A DNA stretch of 64,000 bases. It comes from an uncultured Pseudomonadales bacterium. Its GTDB lineage: Bacteria; Patescibacteriota; Microgenomatia; UBA1400; PJMF01. The stretch lies in the NCBI GenBank assembly GCA_964607285.1, contig CAZSJW010000001.1, positions 250,555 to 314,554 of the forward strand, written 5' to 3'. This document shows positions 6,306-56,310 of this stretch, in pieces. The translations under genes were made by a program, and so were the position numbers. The notes under the pieces are model-generated. The model ran no database searches. It had not been told where the DNA came from and saw nothing but the letters and a program-made list of their open reading frames with translations. Each line of letters begins with the position of its first letter. The stretch's first letter is position 1.

Positions 6306-6848
6306 ATGGCATCTCGAACATTTTCAGCGCAAGGCATAATCTTGAAGCGCACTGATAGTGGTGAACAAGACCGTATTGTCCACATCCTTACTAAAGAGCG
6401 TGGGAAAATGATTTGCGTTGCTAAAGGAGTTCGCCGTATCACTTCCTCCAAAGCAAGCAGCTTAGAACCTGGCAACTTCATCTCTGGTTTTTTCGTTGAA
6501 ACAAAAAGCTGGCCACTACTGACTCAAGCAAAACTGATTGCAGACTGCGCAACCATGCCGAGAACACTACAAGCGTTTAGGCAACTTTCGCAAATATTAG
6601 AAATATTTGACCAAGTATTCGTGGAAGAAGAAATTGATACACCAATGTTTACTCTAATTACCAAGCTACGAAGCACCGTGACAAAGCCCGTCGTATCTAC
6701 TGCTCTCATTAGGGCTCAATTAAGTCTTCTTATCACACAGTTGGGCTTCCCTCACCCAGACACCCGACCAAACCTTACTATCAGTGACTATATTTCACAA
6801 CTCACCGAGCGACAAATAAAAAGTTATGACTACCTGAAAACTAAGTAG
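6306..6848 (+). CDS. recO: DNA repair protein RecO (short form, 180 aa)
   Basis: N-terminus SAQGIILKRTDSGEQDRIVHILTKERGKMICVAKGVRR matches the RecO OB-fold N-terminal domain pattern. It is shorter than typical RecO (~240 aa). Confidence 0.6.
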   Translation: MASRTFSAQGIILKRTDSGEQDRIVHILTKERGKMICVAKGVRRITSSKASSLEPGNFISGFFVETKSWPLLTQAKLIADCATMPRTLQAFRQLSQILEIFDQVFVEEEIDTPMFTLITKLRSTVTKPVVSTALIRAQLSLLITQLGFPHPDTRPNLTISDYISQLTERQIKSYDYLKTK

Positions 6849-6856
6849 CTCTCACA

Positions 6857-6865
6857 TGGTATACT
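6857..6865 (+). promoter_or_regulatory. Extended -10 promoter element (TGgTATACT) for the glyQS leader
   Basis: catgGTATACTaac sits directly after the recO stop, about 150 nt upstream of the glyQS ATG. Confidence 0.3.
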
Positions 6866-6871
6866 AACTAC

Positions 6872-7012
6872 TGTGTACTACTGAGTCTGTGGCAAGCTCA
6901 AAAAAAAGTAGGATCACACTGAAAGTGTTTCGCAGTTAGCGAGAAAAAAGGGTGGAACCGCCGAACATTGTTTGGTCCCTTTAGTAACAAATGTTGCACG
7001 GGAAAGGGTTTC
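6872..7012 (+). promoter_or_regulatory. Candidate T-box riboswitch leader (glycine-specific) upstream of glyQS
   Basis: T-box core AAAAAGGGTGGAACCGCCG at 6944-6963 (consensus AAUUAGGGUGGNACCGCG). The variable base gives UGGA, complementary to the ACCA end of a tRNA with discriminator U. The tRNA-Gly(CCC) in this window has discriminator U. Candidate specifier GGC-A at 6891-6894. Downstream, CCCTTT (6977-6982) can pair with the SD-like GGGAAAGGG (7000-7008), giving a possible SD-sequestering helix. Confidence 0.45.
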
Positions 7013-8404
7013 ATGCTAATTGCACAAAGTTCTCAACCATCTCTAGAGCAGATTACTTCTTTGGCAAAGCGCCGTGGTTTTGTGTACCAAACATCTAGCA
7101 TTTACGGTGGCTTGACTAGTTCGTATGATTTAGGTCCACTTGGGACTGAGCTTATGCGCAACATTCGTGCAGCCTGGTGGGAGTTCTTTATTTCCAGACG
7201 ACCAGATATGGTGGGCCTAGACTCACAAATCATGCTGCACCCACAGACTTGGGTTGCGTCAGGACATGTTGCCTCTTTTAGTGACCCGCTTGTTGAAGAT
7301 ACGGTGACAAAAAAAAGATATCGGGCAGATCACTTGATAGAGGCCTGGCTTAACAAGCATCCCGACAGCTCTATAGTTGTTGAGACAATGGATCTAACGG
7401 CTATGGCGGTTTTCTTGACAGAACACAATGTCCTGAGTCCTGATGGAAATGCCATCACCGAACCGAAGTCATTCAACCTCTTGTTTGAGACCGAAATTGG
7501 TTCTGTGGCGGGAGACAAAGCAAAAGTCTACCTGCGCGGAGAAACTGCACAAGGTATTTTCACTAACTTTAAAAATATCTTAGATTCAACCCGCGTCCAA
7601 CTGCCATTTGGTGTTGGTCAGATTGGAAAAAGCTTCCGCAATGAAATCACTACGGGACAGTTTGTCTTCCGCACACTAGAGTTTGAACAAGCCGAAATCG
7701 AGTACTTTTTCAACCCTCAACAGACGGACTGGAAAGTGCTCTTCAAAGAGTGGCAAGACTTGATGTGGGAATTTGTGACAGAAGTCATTGGGATACAGCC
7801 AAAAAATTTGCGCTGGCGCACACACACCGATACTGAGCGAAGCTTCTATAGCTTAGAAACAATGGACCTTGAGTATCTCTTCTCATTCGGCTGGAAAGAA
7901 CTGTGGGGCATTGCATACCGTACTGACTATGATCTCAAGCAACATGAAGTGTTAAGTGGCGAATCACTCCACTACACCGACCCTCATTCAGGCGAATCAT
8001 TCATTCCCCACGTTATCGAGCCCGCACTTGGCTTATCTAGGCTTTTCCTAATGCTACTAACTGATAGTTATATTGTGGACACTGAACGAAACCGCACTGT
8101 ATTGCGATTACCAAAATCCTTGGCCCCTACCAGAGCAGCAGTGTTTCCTCTGGTTCGCAACAAACCAGAACTGGTTGCTGCTGCTAAGGATATATGGCAG
8201 ACGCTTGCGCCTCATCATAGAGTCAGTTGGGATGACAGAGGTAACATTGGTAAACGATACTTATACCAAGATGAAGTGGGCACTCCATACTGCATAACAG
8301 TGGACTACCAAACACTGGAGGATCAAACAGTTACTATACGCGAACGTGACACAGCTACACAACAACGAATTGCTATCTCCAAACTCATAGAATTCTTGAG
8401 GTAA
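7013..8404 (+). CDS. glyQS: Glycine--tRNA ligase, single-chain alpha2 (class II) type
   Basis: The stretch LAKRRGFVYQTSSIYGGLTSSYDLGPLGTELMRNIRAAWW...HPQTWVASGHVASFSDPLVEDTVTKKRYRADHL is near-collinear with Thermus/archaeal-type GlyRS. The start at 7013 is supported by the SD GGAAAGGG 5 nt upstream; the ORF track starts at 6968. Confidence 0.9.
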   Translation: MLIAQSSQPSLEQITSLAKRRGFVYQTSSIYGGLTSSYDLGPLGTELMRNIRAAWWEFFISRRPDMVGLDSQIMLHPQTWVASGHVASFSDPLVEDTVTKKRYRADHLIEAWLNKHPDSSIVVETMDLTAMAVFLTEHNVLSPDGNAITEPKSFNLLFETEIGSVAGDKAKVYLRGETAQGIFTNFKNILDSTRVQLPFGVGQIGKSFRNEITTGQFVFRTLEFEQAEIEYFFNPQQTDWKVLFKEWQDLMWEFVTEVIGIQPKNLRWRTHTDTERSFYSLETMDLEYLFSFGWKELWGIAYRTDYDLKQHEVLSGESLHYTDPHSGESFIPHVIEPALGLSRLFLMLLTDSYIVDTERNRTVLRLPKSLAPTRAAVFPLVRNKPELVAAAKDIWQTLAPHHRVSWDDRGNIGKRYLYQDEVGTPYCITVDYQTLEDQTVTIRERDTATQQRIAISKLIEFLR

Positions 8405-37227: not shown

Positions 37228-37977
37228 ATGGAAACTGAACAATATACCCCGTTACGCTTGCCAGAGCTGGCAGCGAAACTGCTAAAAGAACTTGGTCCCG
37301 CCAGTGAAATACTCTGTGATATCAATGATCAAGGTTTTGTCACACTTACGACTAATCATGGAGTGGTATTAAATTCTTTACTTACTCCAAAATCCAAAAT
37401 TAAACAGGATGAGAAAAGAAATTCATATACGGGATGGTGGTTTGGAGATACACTTCATATAAATGCTAGGGATGCGGTCAAACATACAGTTGGTAAAGCA
37501 ATTCTTGCACATGAATTCGGTCATAATGATATATGGTTACAGAGATATGATCATGATGAAGTCTTAGAAATGCAACTATTAAATAGCTATTCAAGGTCGG
37601 GTGAACCACTAGAAAATTTGGTTTCACAAATTAGCAAAGTAGCACGTATTGTAATTACGACAGAGTTAGAAGCATGGGAAAGCGGTATTCCTGTAGCAAA
37701 ACTGATCGGCGTACCTGAGCGAGTTTTTGAAAGTGTTCGCGCGAAAGCCTTAGAGCTGTCATTTCTGACAACACTTGAGACACTTGCTGAGAGGTTAGAA
37801 TTTTTTGTTCTCAGTAACAATCAATTTCATAGCGATTTTTTGACACAATCAATGGAAATCTTTCATCCTTTCGAGGGGGAGCAAGTTAAGTCAATTGGTG
37901 AACTCATTGATACAAAGCTTACAAAAAAAATGATTGAGGACGGCGAGCATCAACTGCAATTGTTACTCGAGAAATAA
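37228..37977 (+). CDS. Hypothetical protein with an HExxH motif (possible zinc metallopeptidase-like)
   Basis: AILAHEFGHNDIWLQRYDHDE has an HEFGH zincin-type motif, with acidic residues 12-16 aa downstream as a possible third ligand. No other similarity recognised. Confidence 0.35.
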   Translation: METEQYTPLRLPELAAKLLKELGPASEILCDINDQGFVTLTTNHGVVLNSLLTPKSKIKQDEKRNSYTGWWFGDTLHINARDAVKHTVGKAILAHEFGHNDIWLQRYDHDEVLEMQLLNSYSRSGEPLENLVSQISKVARIVITTELEAWESGIPVAKLIGVPERVFESVRAKALELSFLTTLETLAERLEFFVLSNNQFHSDFLTQSMEIFHPFEGEQVKSIGELIDTKLTKKMIEDGEHQLQLLLEK

Positions 37978-38082: not shown

Positions 38083-39687
38083 CTAGCGTGCCTCTGCAAT
38101 CAAGTCCGGATGTTCTTTATCGATATACCAGTAATAAATAATTTCTAGCAATCTTCCAAAGTATTTTTCTGCATAACTGTCTTCTGCATCATCTGGATCT
38201 GGGTAGTATGTTCTCAAGAACTGCATAGCCATTGTGATTAGTACTTCCCTGTTCTGATCTTCGAGTGGCAACCGCAACACTGCCTCGGCAAACGCACCTA
38301 CGTTTCTCAGTTTAAGTCTGTTAAGGACAACACCAATCAGTAAACAATGATTAAAATTGTCTTCTCTCAATTCAAAGCTTAAAGCTCTGTACAATCCCAA
38401 CAACGTTGAGAACTCACTCGGTTTTCCTTGATCGTGCTCAACAACCTCAAGAGCATTGTTCATACTTCGCAAGGTAACGTCTGAAATTGCATTATTGTGG
38501 GCTCTCAAAGCTGCTTTTGTGGTTGCATCCACAAATGGTAACAACGGAACCACAAAGGCTGGATTGTGATCCGAAATTGAAGGGTCAATAGCTATTAGAT
38601 CTTTGAAAACCTGCATCAGTTCAACCAGTTCACTGGAGTTTAGTTGGAGAATGTTTTTTGAATCTTTGCACACTTCCAAGAAACCATTAAAAATAATTCC
38701 TGCATACTTAGGTAGGTTAAATCGATCTCGCTGTAACATAGCTCGTACCTCTTGAGGATCCAGTACTGCTACAATATCAGATACAGTTGCTTCAGACTGA
38801 TCATCTGTCCCAAGGGTATCAGCAAACTTGCTGAGGAGGGTGTTCCTGATCGCAAGTATTGCACTTTTCATTTCTGCAAAAATCACAGGGAAGGCGAGAT
38901 CGTTTACTCCAGGTTTTAGTTCTGTTCTATCCAAATATTTATGAATTCCTGGAATTGGCTTATCTTCATTCCTAGCTAATCGAACCAAGTGCTTGTAGTC
39001 AGAGAGCAACTCAAAAAAATTTTCAGCTCGTTTTTCATTTGTAAAGCGTGACAAACTACAGTCTTCAAAGGCCCTGATAATCAAGGCGGCTTGTTGCTCC
39101 GTAGTCAACTCTTCCCGTGCGCAAAGAGAGATGACCCTATACGAATCTTCCTCTTGCCATGAGTGCTTGGTCATTCTTAGGGAGACTGCAACTAAATCAG
39201 AAAATAATTGAAAAACACTGTCGTCATTCTGCTTTGTGTTTCTGGGAAACTTAACTTCGCCCGCAATATACTCTATCCATGCTTCAATCTTTTCACGGAG
39301 AGCACGGGTAATCAAGGCATCTGATCTACAGAGTGCAGCCAGTGCATGTGCAAGTCCTTTTGAGAAAGTGTTCACGTATCGATTTTTATCTTTCTCAGAC
39401 CAATCAACCCAGTCTGTAAACGACTCTTTAAACTGAATTATAAGAGTTTCTAAGTCTACCGTGAATGAGGCGCCACTAGATTCACGACCTCCACCCTGCA
39501 TTTCCATAATCTGTCCAATGGTTTCAAAATCCTGAAGAAATTTTTTTTCAATCCTTGCTACATCACCACGATTTGCTCGCACTTTTCCAGTCAGATGTTG
39601 GTGCAGTTCCTGCAATTCATTCCGCAATTGTGGTAGTACCCGCTTATAAATGAATGAAGGATGCTCTGTATACTCTGGTGATTTCAT
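38083..39687 (-). CDS. Hypothetical protein (534 aa, predicted all-alpha, cytoplasmic)
   Basis: Long intact minus-strand ORF. Divergent from the ileS leader. No recognisable domain. Confidence 0.5.
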   Translation of the reverse strand: MKSPEYTEHPSFIYKRVLPQLRNELQELHQHLTGKVRANRGDVARIEKKFLQDFETIGQIMEMQGGGRESSGASFTVDLETLIIQFKESFTDWVDWSEKDKNRYVNTFSKGLAHALAALCRSDALITRALREKIEAWIEYIAGEVKFPRNTKQNDDSVFQLFSDLVAVSLRMTKHSWQEEDSYRVISLCAREELTTEQQAALIIRAFEDCSLSRFTNEKRAENFFELLSDYKHLVRLARNEDKPIPGIHKYLDRTELKPGVNDLAFPVIFAEMKSAILAIRNTLLSKFADTLGTDDQSEATVSDIVAVLDPQEVRAMLQRDRFNLPKYAGIIFNGFLEVCKDSKNILQLNSSELVELMQVFKDLIAIDPSISDHNPAFVVPLLPFVDATTKAALRAHNNAISDVTLRSMNNALEVVEHDQGKPSEFSTLLGLYRALSFELREDNFNHCLLIGVVLNRLKLRNVGAFAEAVLRLPLEDQNREVLITMAMQFLRTYYPDPDDAEDSYAEKYFGRLLEIIYYWYIDKEHPDLIAEAR

Positions 39688-39741
39688 GCGACATTTCTCT
39701 ATTTAAAACTTAATAGCTGAATTATACTGACGTTTTTTTGG

Positions 39742-39770
39742 TTGACAACAGGTGTTTATCATGTGACAAT
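39742..39770 (+). promoter_or_regulatory. Sigma70-type promoter: TTGACA, 17-bp spacer, extended -10 TGtGACAAT
   Basis: gTTGACAacaggtgtttatcaTGtGACAATacg, about 225 nt upstream of the ileS ATG. Confidence 0.45.
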
Positions 39771-39776
39771 ACGAAC

Positions 39777-39994
39777 ACGCCATCATCCGCCATCAACGGA
39801 GAGCCTCGCAGCATGCGGGGTGCGCAGACCAAAGAACTCGCCACAATGCGACACTAGACTGGTCCGGGTAAGCCCGTAATCGCTGGAATAAGTCTCGCCA
39901 AAGGCGGGAGAACAGAGGTGGTACCACCACATAGTTGGTCCTCTTGCAAACGTATATACGTGCAAGGGGATTTTTTTGTCCCCAGAAAGTAACA
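39777..39994 (+). promoter_or_regulatory. Candidate T-box riboswitch leader (isoleucine-specific) upstream of ileS
   Basis: GC-rich structured leader in an AT-rich genome. T-box-like core AACAGAGGTGGTACCACCAC at 39911-39930 (GGUGGUACC core). The variable base gives UGGU, complementary to ACCA with discriminator A as in tRNA-Ile. ATC-A candidates for the specifier are at ~39782-39795. Downstream are a long hairpin (39943-39966), a T7 tract (39971-39977) and a GGGGA/TCCCC hairpin. Confidence 0.4.
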
Positions 39995-42817
39995 ATGCCA
40001 ACCAAACAACCACTACCAGCCCAACCTAGCTTTCCACAAATGGAGGAAGAAGTCTTGGCATACTGGCAAAAAACCAAAGCTTTTGAGAAGTCAGTGGAGA
40101 TGCGCTCCGCTGATAAAGCGTACATTTTTTATGATGGACCTCCATTCGCCACTGGCCTGCCACACTACGGACACCTCCTCGGCTCAACATCTAAAGACGT
40201 CATCCCTCGCTACTGGACTATGAAGGGCTACCGTGTGGAACGCATCTGGGGCTGGGACTGCCATGGCTTGCCAATTGAGCACATGATAGAAAAAAAACTC
40301 AAGATAACTGGCGGCAAAAAAGGCATCGAGAAACTAGGTATCCACAAGTTCAACGAAGCCTGTCGCTCCGAAGTGCTACGCCTAGATACCGAGTGGGAGA
40401 AAATCATCGCTAGACTAGGACGTTGGGTAGACTTCAAGAACAACTACAAAACCATGGATACATCATATATGGAGTCTGTTTGGTGGGGCTTTAAGCAGCT
40501 GTTTGACAAGGGTTTGGTCTATGAAGGCAAGAAAGTGATTCTCTACTGTCCACGCTGTGCCACCCCACTCTCAAACTTTGAGATCGCCATGGATAACAGC
40601 TACCAAACCGTCACTGAACCTTCTAACACCTACAAGTACAAGCTCAAGGCAGAAGAAAATACCTACATCCTGGCTTGGTCTACAACTCCATGGAACAAGC
40701 TGGCAACTCCAGCTTTAGCAGTTCACCCAACACTCAAGTACGTCAAAGTCAAACAAGGTACAGAGTTCTACGTCTTGGCAGAGAGCACTCTCAAAATTCT
40801 TAGCGATGAATCATACGAAATTGTCAAAACCTATTCGGGCAAAGACCTAGAAAAGTTTGAGTTCGAGCTTCACTACGATTTCTATCCGCGTTCTCAAGGT
40901 CAAAAAGCAGGCGTGATAGTGGCAGATGAGTTCGTCACAGCTGAGGAGGGCACGGGTGTTGTTACCCTAGCCGTCTACGGCGAAGATGACTATCGTGTTA
41001 TGAAAGCCCACAACATTCAGATGGTGGAGCATGTTGATGATGAAGGCAAGCTCAAACCAGAGGTTACACAGTGGGCTGGTATGAACATCCAAGCCGTTAA
41101 TCCCTTAGTCAATGCTGATCTTGCGGAGAGAGGCCTACTGTACTCCGAAGAACCACACACCCACAGTGTGGCCGAGTGTTATCGCTGTAGCACTAGGCTG
41201 TACTACGCACCAATGCCAGCTTGGTTTATCAATGTGCAAGAACTCAAACAGGATTTACTCGAACACAACGAGAGTATCAACTGGTTCCCCAAACATCTCA
41301 AACATGGTCGCTTCAAACATGGCTTAGAAACAGCACCAGACTGGAATATCTCCCGCTCCCGCTACTGGGGCACTCCAATGCCAATCTGGGAAAGTGCAGA
41401 CAAAAAACTGCGCAGAATTGTTGGTTCTGTAGCAGAGCTGCAAGAATGGGCTGTTGATCCAGCCAAGGCTGCTGCAGTAACCGATATTCATCCCGAGTTC
41501 TTGAGTGATATCGAGCTTTGGGTTGATGCTGAGCGCACAGTCAAAGGTACCCGAATCAGTGAAGTCTTCGACTGCTGGGTCGAGTCGGGCTCCATGCCGT
41601 TTGCCCATCGTCACTATCCGTTTGCAAACAAAAAGCAGTTTGAGGCAACTTATCCTGCACAGTTCATCAGCGAGTACATTGCCCAGACCCGAGCCTGGTT
41701 CTACACCATGCACGTTATGTCAGTGGGTGTGTTTGGCAAACCCGCTTTTGAGAACGTTCTCACCACGGGCACAATCTTAGCTGAGGATGGCAGTAAAATG
41801 AGTAAGTCTAAAAATAACTACCCAGATCCCATGGTCTTGATTGACAAATATGGCGTAGATAGCTTGAGGCTGTATTTGATGAGCTCAACGGTCATGAAAT
41901 CGGAAAATCTGAACTTTTCTGAAAAAGAAGTTGGAGACATTCGCAAGAAAGTCTTCCTGATCTGGTGGAATATGTATGCGTTTTACCATCTGTATGCGCC
42001 ATTTGAGGCACAGGAAGTAGCTGAGTTGCCACCGCTCGAAGAAGTCACTGATGTCATGGATCGCTGGGTGCTGAGTCGTTTGGCAACAGTTACGCTGGAA
42101 GTCACCAAGGCATTTGATTCGTACAATACTATCAAGGCGTCTCGGCCGCTGATGGAGTTTGTGAATGAACTTTCTACCTGGTACTTGCGTAGAAGTCGTG
42201 AGCGGTTGAAGGACAACCAGACATCGCTACGGGTGTTTGGGCATGTTTTGTATCGACTGGCACAGTTGTTTGCGCCGCTTGCACCTTTTTTTAGTGAGAA
42301 TATCTACCAGCGAGTGCTAAACACAGATCTTAGTGTGCACCACACGGATTGGCCAGTGCTGGATGCTAGCTTGAGGCATCCAAAGCTAGAAACTAACATG
42401 ACACTCATCCGCTCCGTTGTTGAACGAGTGCATGCTGCTCGCTCTGAGGCTGGAATCAAAGTTCGGCAGCCACTGGCAAATGTGGCAGTTACTGCACCAT
42501 CCAAACCTGAAGATAATCTGCTTGCGGTATTGTTGGAAGAGGTCAATGTTAAGACTGTTAAGTGGACAGTGGGAAGCGACTTAACGGTTAATCTCAACAC
42601 AGAGCTTACTCCTGAATTAGAAGCTGAGGGCAAAGCGCGGGAGCTAATCCGAAGCATTCAGAAGTTGCGGAAGGAAGCGGGGTTGCAGGTTGGAATGCAC
42701 GCTACTGTTACTGTGCCGATGAATACAATTTCAGAAGAGTGGCAGAATCGGGTAGCTGAAATCACGTGCTCAACCATTTTGGTTGGTGACGATTTAAAAA
42801 TCAGTACCGAATCTTGA
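39995..42817 (+). CDS. ileS: Isoleucine--tRNA ligase
   Basis: HIGH motif (PPFATGLPHYGHLL) and KMSKS (GSKMSKSKNN). 941 aa from the ATG at 39995 (MPTKQPL...); the ORF track starts at 39935 inside the leader. Confidence 0.9.
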   Translation: MPTKQPLPAQPSFPQMEEEVLAYWQKTKAFEKSVEMRSADKAYIFYDGPPFATGLPHYGHLLGSTSKDVIPRYWTMKGYRVERIWGWDCHGLPIEHMIEKKLKITGGKKGIEKLGIHKFNEACRSEVLRLDTEWEKIIARLGRWVDFKNNYKTMDTSYMESVWWGFKQLFDKGLVYEGKKVILYCPRCATPLSNFEIAMDNSYQTVTEPSNTYKYKLKAEENTYILAWSTTPWNKLATPALAVHPTLKYVKVKQGTEFYVLAESTLKILSDESYEIVKTYSGKDLEKFEFELHYDFYPRSQGQKAGVIVADEFVTAEEGTGVVTLAVYGEDDYRVMKAHNIQMVEHVDDEGKLKPEVTQWAGMNIQAVNPLVNADLAERGLLYSEEPHTHSVAECYRCSTRLYYAPMPAWFINVQELKQDLLEHNESINWFPKHLKHGRFKHGLETAPDWNISRSRYWGTPMPIWESADKKLRRIVGSVAELQEWAVDPAKAAAVTDIHPEFLSDIELWVDAERTVKGTRISEVFDCWVESGSMPFAHRHYPFANKKQFEATYPAQFISEYIAQTRAWFYTMHVMSVGVFGKPAFENVLTTGTILAEDGSKMSKSKNNYPDPMVLIDKYGVDSLRLYLMSSTVMKSENLNFSEKEVGDIRKKVFLIWWNMYAFYHLYAPFEAQEVAELPPLEEVTDVMDRWVLSRLATVTLEVTKAFDSYNTIKASRPLMEFVNELSTWYLRRSRERLKDNQTSLRVFGHVLYRLAQLFAPLAPFFSENIYQRVLNTDLSVHHTDWPVLDASLRHPKLETNMTLIRSVVERVHAARSEAGIKVRQPLANVAVTAPSKPEDNLLAVLLEEVNVKTVKWTVGSDLTVNLNTELTPELEAEGKARELIRSIQKLRKEAGLQVGMHATVTVPMNTISEEWQNRVAEITCSTILVGDDLKISTES

Positions 42818-42848: not shown

Positions 42849-44147
42849 TTAACTTCTTAGAATTAGATACGTAGCATCATCAGTGACTCGGTCAGCCAGT
42901 TGAGCAAGTACTTGCACAGGATTCGATGTCCTCCCGATTTCAAATGCAAGCTTTAGCATCTCTTCCGGCGTGCGTTCTCTAGTACCTATCGGAAGTTTGT
43001 CCAGTCCGTCTGTCCTCACAGTAATTGTAAACTGCATTTCAGGCTCACGAATAAATTCATGCGCTGAAATTTTCTCTCTGTATTGGGACGCGTCTTGCGT
43101 TCCTGCTCCATAGTTTATTTGAGCTGGAGCTGCACCTGATTTGTATGCTATTTCACTGTGATAATTGTCATAGTCTGGTCCTGCAGTGACACCAATCCCT
43201 CCATCACCACCATCTAAATATAAAATCTTCAGAGGATCTGTCTTCGCATCATCATCTATCACGGCAAGACCTAATAAAGTCGAGCTCGCTATTGTTTGAG
43301 GATTACTCATGCCTGCTAGGTAACCCTCTCTTTGCAACTGAGGTAGTGATGCAGATCTCTTAACTGCAATCTGCTCTAACGTGTCCTTCCCAATTGAATG
43401 AAGGTATGCATCCGCGTAGGCAGCAGCTTGACTCATAACCTCAGCAACTCCATCAGCGTCTTTGATATCTCCATTTTTAACTGCTTTGATGCAATACTCT
43501 TGCGCTTTATTTACCAATACTCGAGCCGCAACATCTCCCAGAATAGTACTGCCAACTCCGTCTGCAACGAAAACCACCCTTACGGTGTGACTATTACCAC
43601 TTCCATTTTCGATCCTGAAGGCAAAGACAGTAAGTGCATCAGCACATACCGATAGATCCCTTCCAGCCTCTGAGGCTCTAATACCTATCAAACCTAAATC
43701 GGGGGCATCAATAGTTTCTAGTAAAAATGCAGTAGTATCCTGTGTTGTTGCCTTAATTAAATTTGTATCAGTTTTAGACTCGCCACCCTTTCCAATAGAT
43801 GTAATTCTTGACTTATCCTGGGTTAGAGCATGCAGCTCTGATAGGCTCGGTGCAGAATCCTGATGTTCTTGAGCTGGAACTATAGGTCTAAGAGCAGTAA
43901 TTACTTTATCTGCAGCCACCTCAGGAACTGAGCTCGCACCTGTAATCGGCACCCATGATGTCACGAAACTTGGAGACTGCCGAGCTTCAATCTGCGCAAC
44001 GAGCTCAACTAACTCATTGTCCTGGGGAGGAATCGTTTTTTTCTCGAATCTGAAGGGTAATGCTTTTTCAATTCTTTCTTTTGCCCTATAAAAAACTTCC
44101 ATTATTCTCATGGGTGCAATTTTAAATGATTTTTTACATTTTTGCAT
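42849..44147 (-). CDS. Hypothetical protein with a possible PP2C/SpoIIE-like phosphatase core
   Basis: VRVVFVADGVGSTILGDVAARV resembles the PPM motif lfaVaDGmGGhaaGevAs. SEAGRDLSVCADAL resembles G.R...ED. A later acidic cluster is LAVIDDD / YLDGGDGG. 432 aa with a ~140-aa N-terminal extension. Confidence 0.35.
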   Translation of the reverse strand: MQKCKKSFKIAPMRIMEVFYRAKERIEKALPFRFEKKTIPPQDNELVELVAQIEARQSPSFVTSWVPITGASSVPEVAADKVITALRPIVPAQEHQDSAPSLSELHALTQDKSRITSIGKGGESKTDTNLIKATTQDTTAFLLETIDAPDLGLIGIRASEAGRDLSVCADALTVFAFRIENGSGNSHTVRVVFVADGVGSTILGDVAARVLVNKAQEYCIKAVKNGDIKDADGVAEVMSQAAAYADAYLHSIGKDTLEQIAVKRSASLPQLQREGYLAGMSNPQTIASSTLLGLAVIDDDAKTDPLKILYLDGGDGGIGVTAGPDYDNYHSEIAYKSGAAPAQINYGAGTQDASQYREKISAHEFIREPEMQFTITVRTDGLDKLPIGTRERTPEEMLKLAFEIGRTSNPVQVLAQLADRVTDDATYLILRS

Positions 44148-56236: not shown

Positions 56237-56310
56237 TGGAGCGGGATACGGGAATCGAACCCGCTTCTTATCCTTGGGAAGGATACATACTACCAGTGTA
56301 CTAATCCCGC
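56237..56310 (-). tRNA. tRNA-Gly (anticodon CCC), CCA encoded
   Basis: The reverse complement is GCGGGAT-TA-GTAC-ACTGGTA-GTAT-G-TATCC-TTCCCAA-GGATA-AGAA-GCGGG-TTCGATT-CCCGT-ATCCCGC-T-CCA. Anticodon loop U33-CCC-A37; discriminator U. Confidence 0.8.

Follow-up and report, generated by a model that had tools for sequence, protein, structure and literature searches.

A probable T-box riboswitch with an ultrashort Stem I and an intrinsic terminator in the ileS leader of a Patescibacteria genome

Described ileS T-boxes and the ileS locus

The T-box mechanism itself is already well known, and one of its described forms, the ultrashort Stem I (US) class, is translational and exclusive to ileS (bioRxiv 10.1101/2023.02.28.530422). 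US ileS T-boxes, treated as an actinobacterial feature, include those of M. smegmatis, M. tuberculosis (PDB 6UFG) and the related N. farcinica (PDB 6UFM) (PMC7583486, 10.1101/2023.02.28.530422), and in the solved actinobacterial ileS T-boxes Stem II and the IIA/B pseudoknot clamp the codon-anticodon helix. Transcriptional T-boxes generally need the elbow-binding platform in the distal part of Stem I, and a K-turn is essential for binding by a short Stem I-Stem II module (PMC7583486). The TBDB class II model has been run only on Actinobacteria, and we found no literature linking T-boxes to Patescibacteria/CPR.

In the window, by which we mean the whole 64,000-nucleotide stretch analysed here, a first-pass annotation had proposed that ileS is preceded by a strong promoter and by a GC-rich leader with a T-box-like core, and each sequence feature that it listed is present where it had been placed. 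A full-length alignment to the Rfam T-box model, conservation and covariation among relatives, an isoleucine specifier, and competition between a terminator and an antiterminator together bear out the proposal of a T-box leader. We consider it very probable that the ileS leader is a T-box riboswitch which couples ileS transcription to tRNA-Ile charging.

The ileS gene (39995-42817, + strand) encodes a protein of 940 aa that matches TIGR00392 with 777 bits. Its best PDB matches are cytoplasmic IleRS and IleRS2 (640-686 bits), and S. aureus IleRS (1ffy) scores 276 bits. With the type 1 and type 2 labels that we take the matched structures to bear, the product would be a type 2, 'eukaryote-like' IleRS; mycobacterial IleRS is also of the eukaryote-like type. 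The divergent neighbour of ileS is an open reading frame of 534 aa (38083-39687, − strand) with no family match, and the gap of 307 bp between the two genes holds the leader.

The ileS promoter is of sigma-70 type (39742-39770, + strand) and, as had been noted, combines a perfect TTGACA −35 (39742-39747), a 17-bp spacer and an extended −10, TGT-GACAAT (39762-39770), giving the full string TTGACA-17-TGTGACAAT. The −10 hexamer agrees with the consensus at 4 of 6 positions and the promoter, which has the TG, at 10 of 12. Chance would give 1.1 sites this good in the region, where two occur, and by itself the match to a promoter therefore carries little weight. In the comparison with relatives, TGCTATAAT stands at an equal distance from the leader in L001 and L002, two of the loci described below. 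Transcription is predicted to start near A39777, and from there to the ileS ATG at 39995 the leader spans about 218 nt, the length first given for it. Its GC content (0.53-0.57) does exceed that of the upstream flank (0.38-0.44), as the first-pass annotation had remarked; the contrast is moderate, because ileS itself ranges from 0.41 to 0.54. On the − strand, a promoter-like site, TTGTCA-16-TATAAT (39721-39748; 11 of 12, a consensus match only), faces the 534-aa gene, and its −35 overlaps the ileS −35. We also considered attenuation by a leader peptide and rejected it: the sole small ORF in the leader (AUG at 39813) has neither Ile codons nor a ribosome-binding site.

Conservation of the leader and its decoding domain

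At curated thresholds, Rfam models identify only three tRNAs in the window and no T-box. Under permissive settings, the T-box model RF00230, which had been suggested as a check, aligns from end to end (model positions 1-219) with 39773-39946, at a score of 29.6 bits that lies below the gathering cut-off of 93 (E=8e-5 when 501 nt are searched and 0.01 for the whole window). Roughly 78 Stem I positions of the model are replaced by 26 nt in the window. None of 20 relatives tested with RF00230 reaches the cut-off either, their scores being 26-37 bits where there is a match at all, and the curated threshold therefore misses all 21 leaders tested, the window's included. The score below the gathering cut-off is among the observations that we count against the T-box reading.

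For comparison we used 80 loci that encode relatives of the window's IleRS (numbered with the prefix L); their credibly named members belong to Patescibacteria/CPR (Pacebacteria, Woesebacteria and Microgenomates), which places the source of the window in CPR as well. A covariance model reaching from Stem II to the antiterminator (R1), with the window among its seeds, matches 50 of the 80 ileS loci, in every case on the ileS strand and upstream of the gene. Forty-eight of these score 45-120 bits, and the copies in L056 and L008, with about 25 bits, seem to have degenerated; the remaining 30 loci give at most 12.3 bits with filters off. The window scores 111.5 bits. For a second model (R2) we took 16 of the matched leaders and left out the window, L001 and L002; it finds the window's leader at 39824-39946 with 79.6 bits (E~1e-17, filters off). 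The next best R2 match in the window is the glyQS leader (15.7 bits), and all else falls below 9 bits. By both models the window's leader scores among the best of all loci. The first-pass annotation had named the absence of a covariance-model match, together with loss of the element from homologous leaders, as telling against a T-box. Neither occurred: 50 of the 80 loci keep the GGUGGNACC element ahead of ileS, and the helices that flank it covary.

Across 10 leaders aligned with MAFFT, pairing in the five core helices amounts to 96.7%, with double changes at 9 pairs, and it drops to 26-59% when the partner is slid by 1-3 columns. A 52-sequence model-fitted alignment, which leans towards the model, gives 95.8% pairing with double changes at 19 of 21 pairs. 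The folding z-score of the whole leader is unremarkable. Both the minimum free energy (MFE) fold of the whole leader and a three-sequence RNAalifold consensus pair the 5′ arm of Stem I with the 3′ arm of Stem III and leave the T-box as a small hairpin. As the functional structure we rejected this long-range fold, which is seen only among three near-identical sequences, in favour of the local helices, which covary across 50. That the whole-leader MFE prefers a different long-range pairing is nonetheless counted against the T-box reading.

Stem II (39827-39864) consists of a lower helix, GACCA/UGGUC (39827-31 with 39860-64), and an upper helix (39838-41 with 39848-51), and between them lie the two strands of an S-turn, AGAA (39833-36) and UAGA (39855-58), both of which are invariant columns. 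Double changes are present in 8 of the 9 Stem II pairs (MAFFT alignment A4), and its helices are 97.6% and 90.7% paired in alignment A5 (52 sequences). Directly downstream is the Stem IIA hairpin CGGG UAAG CCCG (39865-39876), which contains the F-box-like CCCGUAA and forms the most conserved block after the T-box. The invariant blocks are AGAA, UAGA, the IIA hairpin CGGGUAAGCCCG with the subsequent UAA-N-GC, and AGGUGGNACC. The IIA loop AGC (39871-73) can potentially pair with GCU at 39882-39884, the IIB partner, to make a pseudoknot. The pair 39872-83 is GC in 50 of 51 leaders and 39873-82 is CG in 47 of 51; 39871-84 is AU, UA or CG in 24 of 51, and L030 carries compensatory changes. Covariation of the pseudoknot is sparse. 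The three potential pairs match the three-pair pseudoknot described for the M. tuberculosis ileS T-box (PMC11297988).

Next comes the RAG motif, here AAG (39890-39892), one of the RAG and AA motifs of T-boxes (PMC11297988, PMC7778990). It stands upstream of Stem III, UCUCGCC AAA GGCGGGA (39893-39909), which is followed by the purine linker GAAC, the block ending at 39913. Stem III is changed yet still paired in L001 (UUUCCCGCC/GGCGGGAAA) and L002 (CCUCCG/CGGAGG); its length is variable, and it is missing in some relatives.

Upstream of Stem II, only 47 nt (39778-39824) are available from the 5′ end, and they are predicted to fold into a decoding domain built as a three-way junction of a basal helix P1, a specifier hairpin and an extra hairpin, Ib. 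In the window P1 (39778-80 with 39822-24) has just 3 bp, and we hold this modelled fold with moderate confidence. When the isolated 5′ domain is folded with RNAfold, P1, the specifier hairpin and a second hairpin are recovered in most of about 20 relatives, with P1 helices that differ in sequence (GCGU/ACGC, CCCU/AGGG, GUG/CAC, UCCGU/ACGGA). The specifier hairpin is an ultrashort Stem I (39786-39800), with a UCCG/CGGA stem and a 7-nt apical loop, CCAUCAA, that holds the isoleucine codon AUC (39792-39794) followed by A39795.

Full-leader MAFFT misaligned the Stem I region across architectural subtypes, and Stem I was analysed separately in ATC-anchored alignments. A hairpin of 4-8 bp with an apical loop of 5-8 nt that ends in AUC and one or two further bases is present in 42 of 51 leaders. 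AUC is followed by A in 35 of these and by G in 4, hence by a purine in 39 of the 42. ATC is the only invariant block among 36 anchored hairpins, and the arms are 98.7% paired in one group of 25 sequences and 92.7% paired in another of 11 that includes the window, with many double changes. None of 500 shuffles reaches these values, and slid registers give 11-45%. Since the hairpins had been picked by a stem search, we added a control: 71% of leaders contain a hairpin of at least 5 bp with ATC in the loop, whereas only 4-5% of the coding windows or shuffles do, a 15-fold enrichment, and ATC ranks first of the 64 trinucleotides. The specifier, AUC-A for Ile, agrees with the regulated gene, ileS being downstream. 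Two ATC-A candidates had been noted (39782-39787 and 39792-39795), of which only the second is conserved in relatives; the first was rejected as the specifier, the corresponding sequence being ACAAUC in L001 and L002.

Hairpin Ib (39803-39821), formed by GCCUCGCA and UGCGGGGU around a GCA loop, lies between Stem I and Stem II. It carries compensatory changes in L001 and L002 (CG to UA), and a counterpart of unrelated sequence exists in about 20 of 50 relatives. A K-turn-like CC-NNN-UGA...RAGG flanks the specifier hairpin in about 30 leaders. In seven, the loop itself contains a small distal hairpin, making an 'intermediate' Stem I. About 20 leaders, the window's among them, have instead a short basal helix around the specifier hairpin and another hairpin. 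Beside the window's specifier hairpin no GA motif of a K-turn is evident, and a long Stem I with K-turn, specifier internal loop and distal platform is absent from the window's leader. That a K-turn is not evident here, though seen in most relatives, and that Stem I has no distal elbow-binding platform are two further observations counted against the T-box reading; a long Stem I and an elbow platform are absent from accepted actinobacterial T-boxes, too.

Antiterminator, terminator and the regulated step

The antiterminator (39914-39944) bears the T-box sequence, whose core is GAGGTGGTACCACCAC at 39915-39930. It is composed of helix A1, AGAGG/CCUCU (39914-18 with 39940-44), and helix A2, ACC/GGU (39926-28 with 39937-39), on either side of a 7-nt bulge, UGGUACC (39919-39925). 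A2 covaries (GC, AU, UA). The T-box consensus, AGGGUGGNACCGCG with UGGN in a 7-nt bulge, is matched by AGAGG-UGGUACC-ACC at 39914-39928, and the departures from it fall at paired positions whose partners have changed to match. The bulge reads UGGUACC in 42 of 51 ileS leaders; UGGC is found in L001 and L041, and UGGA in L063 and L023. [quoted passage not shown] Scans of the window and of 60 loci gave no tRNA-Ile gene, a result that also counts against the T-box reading, and both this match and that of AUC with the anticodon are based on a tRNA-Ile which we presume to have the anticodon GAU and the discriminator A73. UGGC in L001, the closest relative, would be a mismatch to A73 and is counted against the T-box reading.

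Part of this region, GGTGGTACCACC, is a perfect 12-bp palindrome in the window, and the first-pass annotation had itself raised a simple hairpin or operator as an alternative. Were GGTGGTACCACC the DNA operator of a dimeric repressor or a plain RNA hairpin, its likeness to a T-box would be coincidental; the perfection of the palindrome, and a 'terminator-like' match on the minus strand that covers it, would suit this explanation. The palindrome is not conserved, however, most relatives having GGTGGTACCGCC and L001 GGTGGCACCACC, and GGUACC comes with any T-box whose variable base is U. Folded in full as RNA, the palindrome would be left with a 2-nt loop, and the surrounding 170 nt fit the T-box architecture with covariation. 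We regard an operator or plain hairpin as scarcely credible. The palindrome is incidental: it needs A2 to be ACC/GGU, as in this lineage, in place of the GCC/GGC of others, and L001 has lost it.

Downstream, an AT-rich hairpin followed by a T7 tract had been noted, and these now take on a role as the predicted terminator of the switch. The intrinsic terminator (39940-39977) pairs a 5′ arm, CCUCUUGCA (39940-48), with a 3′ arm, UGCAAGGGG (39961-69), encloses an inner helix (39951-53 with 39958-60) and is followed, after one A, by U7 (39971-77), the hairpin itself spanning 39940-39969. CCUCU (39940-44) is common to A1 and to the 5′ arm of the terminator, and the two folds are mutually exclusive. 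The structural alternatives which had been suggested as a check are both predicted, and the 9+3-bp terminator hairpin, at −14.6 to −15.7 kcal/mol, is more stable than the antiterminator helices alone (−5.8 kcal/mol). A consensus terminator scanner misses this terminator, which has a 2-nt bulge and a 12-nt inner segment, and the same scanner gives no enrichment of terminators over shuffles in 30-50 kb. In its place we ranked hairpin stability before T-runs across the window, and the leader's hairpin is in the top 4 by stability before the 152 runs of at least six T. The design recurs in about 40 of 50 relatives: their hairpins, of −12 to −36 kcal/mol, begin in the 3′ strand of A1 and run directly into U6-8, with 12-47 nt between the U-run and the start codon.

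A further hairpin noted just before the start codon can also form: GGGGA (39966-70), from the 3′ arm of the terminator, may pair instead with UCCCC (39979-83), spanning 39966-39983, at −8.4 kcal/mol. Its counterparts are GCGGAG/CUCCGC in L001 and GCGGGGGA/UCCCCGC in L002, and it is restricted to these three close relatives.

Most likely the mechanism is tRNA-Ile-dependent transcription antitermination. After a start near 39777, the nascent leader would fold its decoding module, in which the very short Stem I presents AUC and the following A in its apical loop, with Stem II (including its S-turn) and the IIA/B pseudoknot flanking the specifier loop. [quoted passage not shown] With tRNA-Ile charged or absent, the stronger terminator would capture CCUCU of A1, and transcription would stop at U7. 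We infer the start site, tRNA binding, the sensing of aminoacylation and termination, not translation, as the regulated step from the arrangement of these elements. In the window the ATG lies 18 nt beyond U7, and neither fold takes in AGAAAG (39984-89), the likely ribosome-binding stretch; transcription attenuation is therefore the most likely mode of action.

A T-box that acts on translation through a sequestrator and anti-sequestrator, or at both levels, with an incidental U-tract, is in our judgement unlikely. Its Stem I is of the type whose class has been described as translational, and the purine-rich 3′ arm of the terminator (AAGGGGA) has an alternative downstream partner. In L007, L008, L015 and L050 the ATG abuts the hairpin or U-run and a GGAGG-like site lies inside the 3′ arm; these four leaders may act on translation, or at both levels. 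Against this explanation for the window's leader, its hairpin runs at once into U7, the spacing to the ATG and the placement of AGAAAG keep the start region clear of both alternative helices, and the U6-8 run and the distance to the start codon are kept in about 40 of 50 relatives.

The leader could also be a decayed relic that no longer senses tRNA, a constitutive leader with a leaky terminator and no tRNA binding. A minimal Stem I without the K-turn motif would be in keeping with decay, as would the seemingly degenerate copies of L008 and L056 at 25 bits and the 30 of 80 relatives that have lost the element or never had one. In the window, by contrast, the specifier, the S-turn, IIA/B, the RAG motif, the UGGU bulge, A1 and A2, and the terminator are all intact, and the leader is among the top scores both as a seed of R1 (111.5 bits) and independently with R2 (79.6 bits). 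Selection still at work is implied by the compensatory changes that separate the window from L001 and L002, and we find a relic very improbable.

Relation to T-box classes and the glyQS leader

Compared by published description, the window's leader shares with the actinobacterial US ileS T-boxes the ileS target and the AUC specifier, the position of that specifier in the apical loop of a short Stem I without a distal double-T-loop platform, Stem II with an S-turn, the IIA/B pseudoknot, Stem III and the UGGN bulge. It differs from them in its expression platform, a hairpin with a U7 terminator in place of a Shine-Dalgarno sequestrator; in its host, which belongs to Patescibacteria/CPR and not to Actinobacteria; and in the addition of a hairpin and a basal helix, which make a three-way junction, with no evident K-turn. 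With canonical transcriptional T-boxes (RF00230; B. subtilis tyrS, Firmicutes ileS) it has in common the competition between a terminator and a weaker antiterminator, UGGN beside helix A1, a specifier followed by a purine, the Stem II, IIA/B and Stem III elements and a place upstream of an aminoacyl-tRNA synthetase gene. Here the difference lies in Stem I, which has about 15 nt and not about 90, and which has no specifier internal loop, AG bulge or distal loop. Lacking a distal loop, the window's Stem I can make no contact with the tRNA elbow.

The leader is thus an architectural variant, an ultrashort Stem I set in a three-way junction and joined to an intrinsic terminator, in a CPR bacterium. 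Judged from reviews and later papers, the combination of a short Stem I with a terminator may be undescribed, and a prior mention is possible. Whether the ileS leaders of Patescibacteria/CPR make up an undescribed T-box class, with the specifier in an apical loop, no elbow contact, co-transcriptional termination and, in about 40% of members including the window, a three-way junction replacing the K-turn, is a question on which we are evenly divided. If they do, the members whose start codon abuts the terminator look like intermediates between transcriptional and translational T-boxes, and the class would bear on which T-box type came first and on whether T-boxes were already present in the ancestor that CPR shared with the Gram-positive/Chloroflexi lineages.

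CPR bacteria are regarded as poor in regulators. With the element at 50 of 80 ileS loci, at least one large CPR lineage seems to have kept the feedback by which tRNA charging acts on aminoacyl-tRNA synthetases. A family that joins an ultrashort Stem I to an intrinsic terminator offers a direct experimental test of the need, stated in the literature, for a long Stem I with its elbow-binding platform in fast co-transcriptional tRNA capture. It also spans K-turn, three-way-junction and intermediate forms of Stem I, and both terminator and sequestrator platforms, and so bears on the evolution of T-box classes.

The window holds a second candidate, the leader of glyQS (6817-6983), whose product matches glycine-tRNA ligase with 576 bits. 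Like the ileS leader it matches the T-box model below threshold (32.3 bits) and has a shortened Stem I, and its bulge reads UGGA. In the tRNA-Gly(CCC) gene at 56237-56310, U73 precedes a CCA that the gene itself encodes, and the agreement of UGGA with U73 would serve, at the level of sequence, as an internal check on the pairing rule between bulge and discriminator. The glyQS leader is without Stem II and IIA/B, whereas the ileS leader has both; glycine T-boxes are the only T-boxes that lack these elements. The alternative helix of the glyQS leader ends in AAAGGG-UUUC-AUG. It is followed by no more than U3, with the ATG 4 nt on, and this platform resembles a sequestrator acting on translation more than it does a terminator.

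Stem I and bulge variants among relatives' ileS leaders

Among the 80 loci that we fetched as encoding relatives of the window's IleRS, a third form of Stem I was found in seven (L036, L037, L038, L063, L055, L027 and L029), approximately 45–80 nt upstream of the match to the core of R1, our covariance model of the ileS leader from Stem II to the antiterminator. In this form the specifier loop encloses a small distal hairpin, as in UUCUG-CCACAUAAUGUGG-AUAUCA-CAGAA, and the topology is thus the canonical one: a distal stem, here truncated, followed on its 3′ side by the codon. The same seven leaders carry long Stem III insertions and very long terminators (−33 to −36 kcal/mol).

Four ileS leaders have a base other than U at the variable position of the bulge, which would face the tRNA discriminator. 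The bulge reads UGGC in L001 (1412–1423) and L041 (1399–1410), and UGGA in L063 (1359–1370) and L023, and the specifier remains AUC in all four despite this change. The IleRS of L001 is 92% identical to that of the window. Either the discriminator of tRNA-Ile is altered in these organisms or the mismatch is tolerated.

Sequence between the terminator and the ileS start codon

In L007 (1376–1500), L008 (1366–1500), L015 (1153–1300) and L050 (1303–1500), the ileS ATG directly follows a terminator-like hairpin or U-run, for example ...AUGGAGGUUUUUUUAUG, and the ribosome-binding site therefore lies inside the 3′ arm. These platforms may serve as terminator and sequestrator at once, or the leaders may stand midway between the transcriptional and the translational type of T-box.

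We also observed that the 3′ arm of the window's ileS terminator can pair with a stretch just 3′ of the U-tract (39966–39983, GGGGA/UCCCC). This pairing was found only in the window and its two close relatives, L001 (GCGGAG/CUCCGC) and L002 (GCGGGGGA/UCCCCGC), at ~1462–1494 in both, where GGAG/CUCC versus GGGG/CCCC is a compensatory difference. The partner segment is transcribed later than the termination decision.

A second T-box upstream of glyQS

The window contains a second T-box, below the Rfam cut-off, in the leader of glyQS (leader 6817–7015; CDS 7013–8404). It scores 32.3 bits with the Rfam model, 18 bits with R1 and 15.7 bits with R2, a second such model built from 16 other leaders. 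Its bulge, UGGAACC, matches the U73-CCA end of tRNA-Gly(CCC), encoded at 56237–56310 of the window. Stem II is absent, Stem I is shortened, 42 nt standing in place of 87 model positions, and UCUGUGGCAAGCUC (~6880–6893) contains a possible GGC-A specifier. Because an alternative helix, CCCUUU...AAAGGG, ends in GGGUUUCAUG, it resembles a Shine-Dalgarno sequestrator, suggesting a translational platform, in contrast to that of the ileS leader in the same window. A glycine T-box with a short Stem I would not fit the account of the ultrashort class, known from actinobacteria, as 'ileS only'.

Surroundings of ileS and names of related records

Promoter-like sites lie back to back at 39721–39748 (minus strand) and 39742–39747 (plus strand). 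The former (TTGTCA-16-TATAAT, 11/12) faces a 534-aa ORF (38083–39687, minus strand), and its −35 shares 5 bp with the ileS −35 (TTGACAA). Neither this ORF nor a nearby 249-aa ORF (37228–37977, plus strand) matched a family in Pfam or NCBIfam. Convergent with ileS is a gene (42849–44147, minus strand) with a weak PP2C phosphatase domain.

Among L001–L080, many MAG records with close relatives of the window's CPR IleRS bear the title 'uncultured Pseudomonadales bacterium', 'Gammaproteobacteria', 'Vitreimonas' or 'Methylococcaceae'. Such titles look like placeholders or mislabels, since Pacebacteria, Woesebacteria and Patescibacteria records carry the same gene and leader family.
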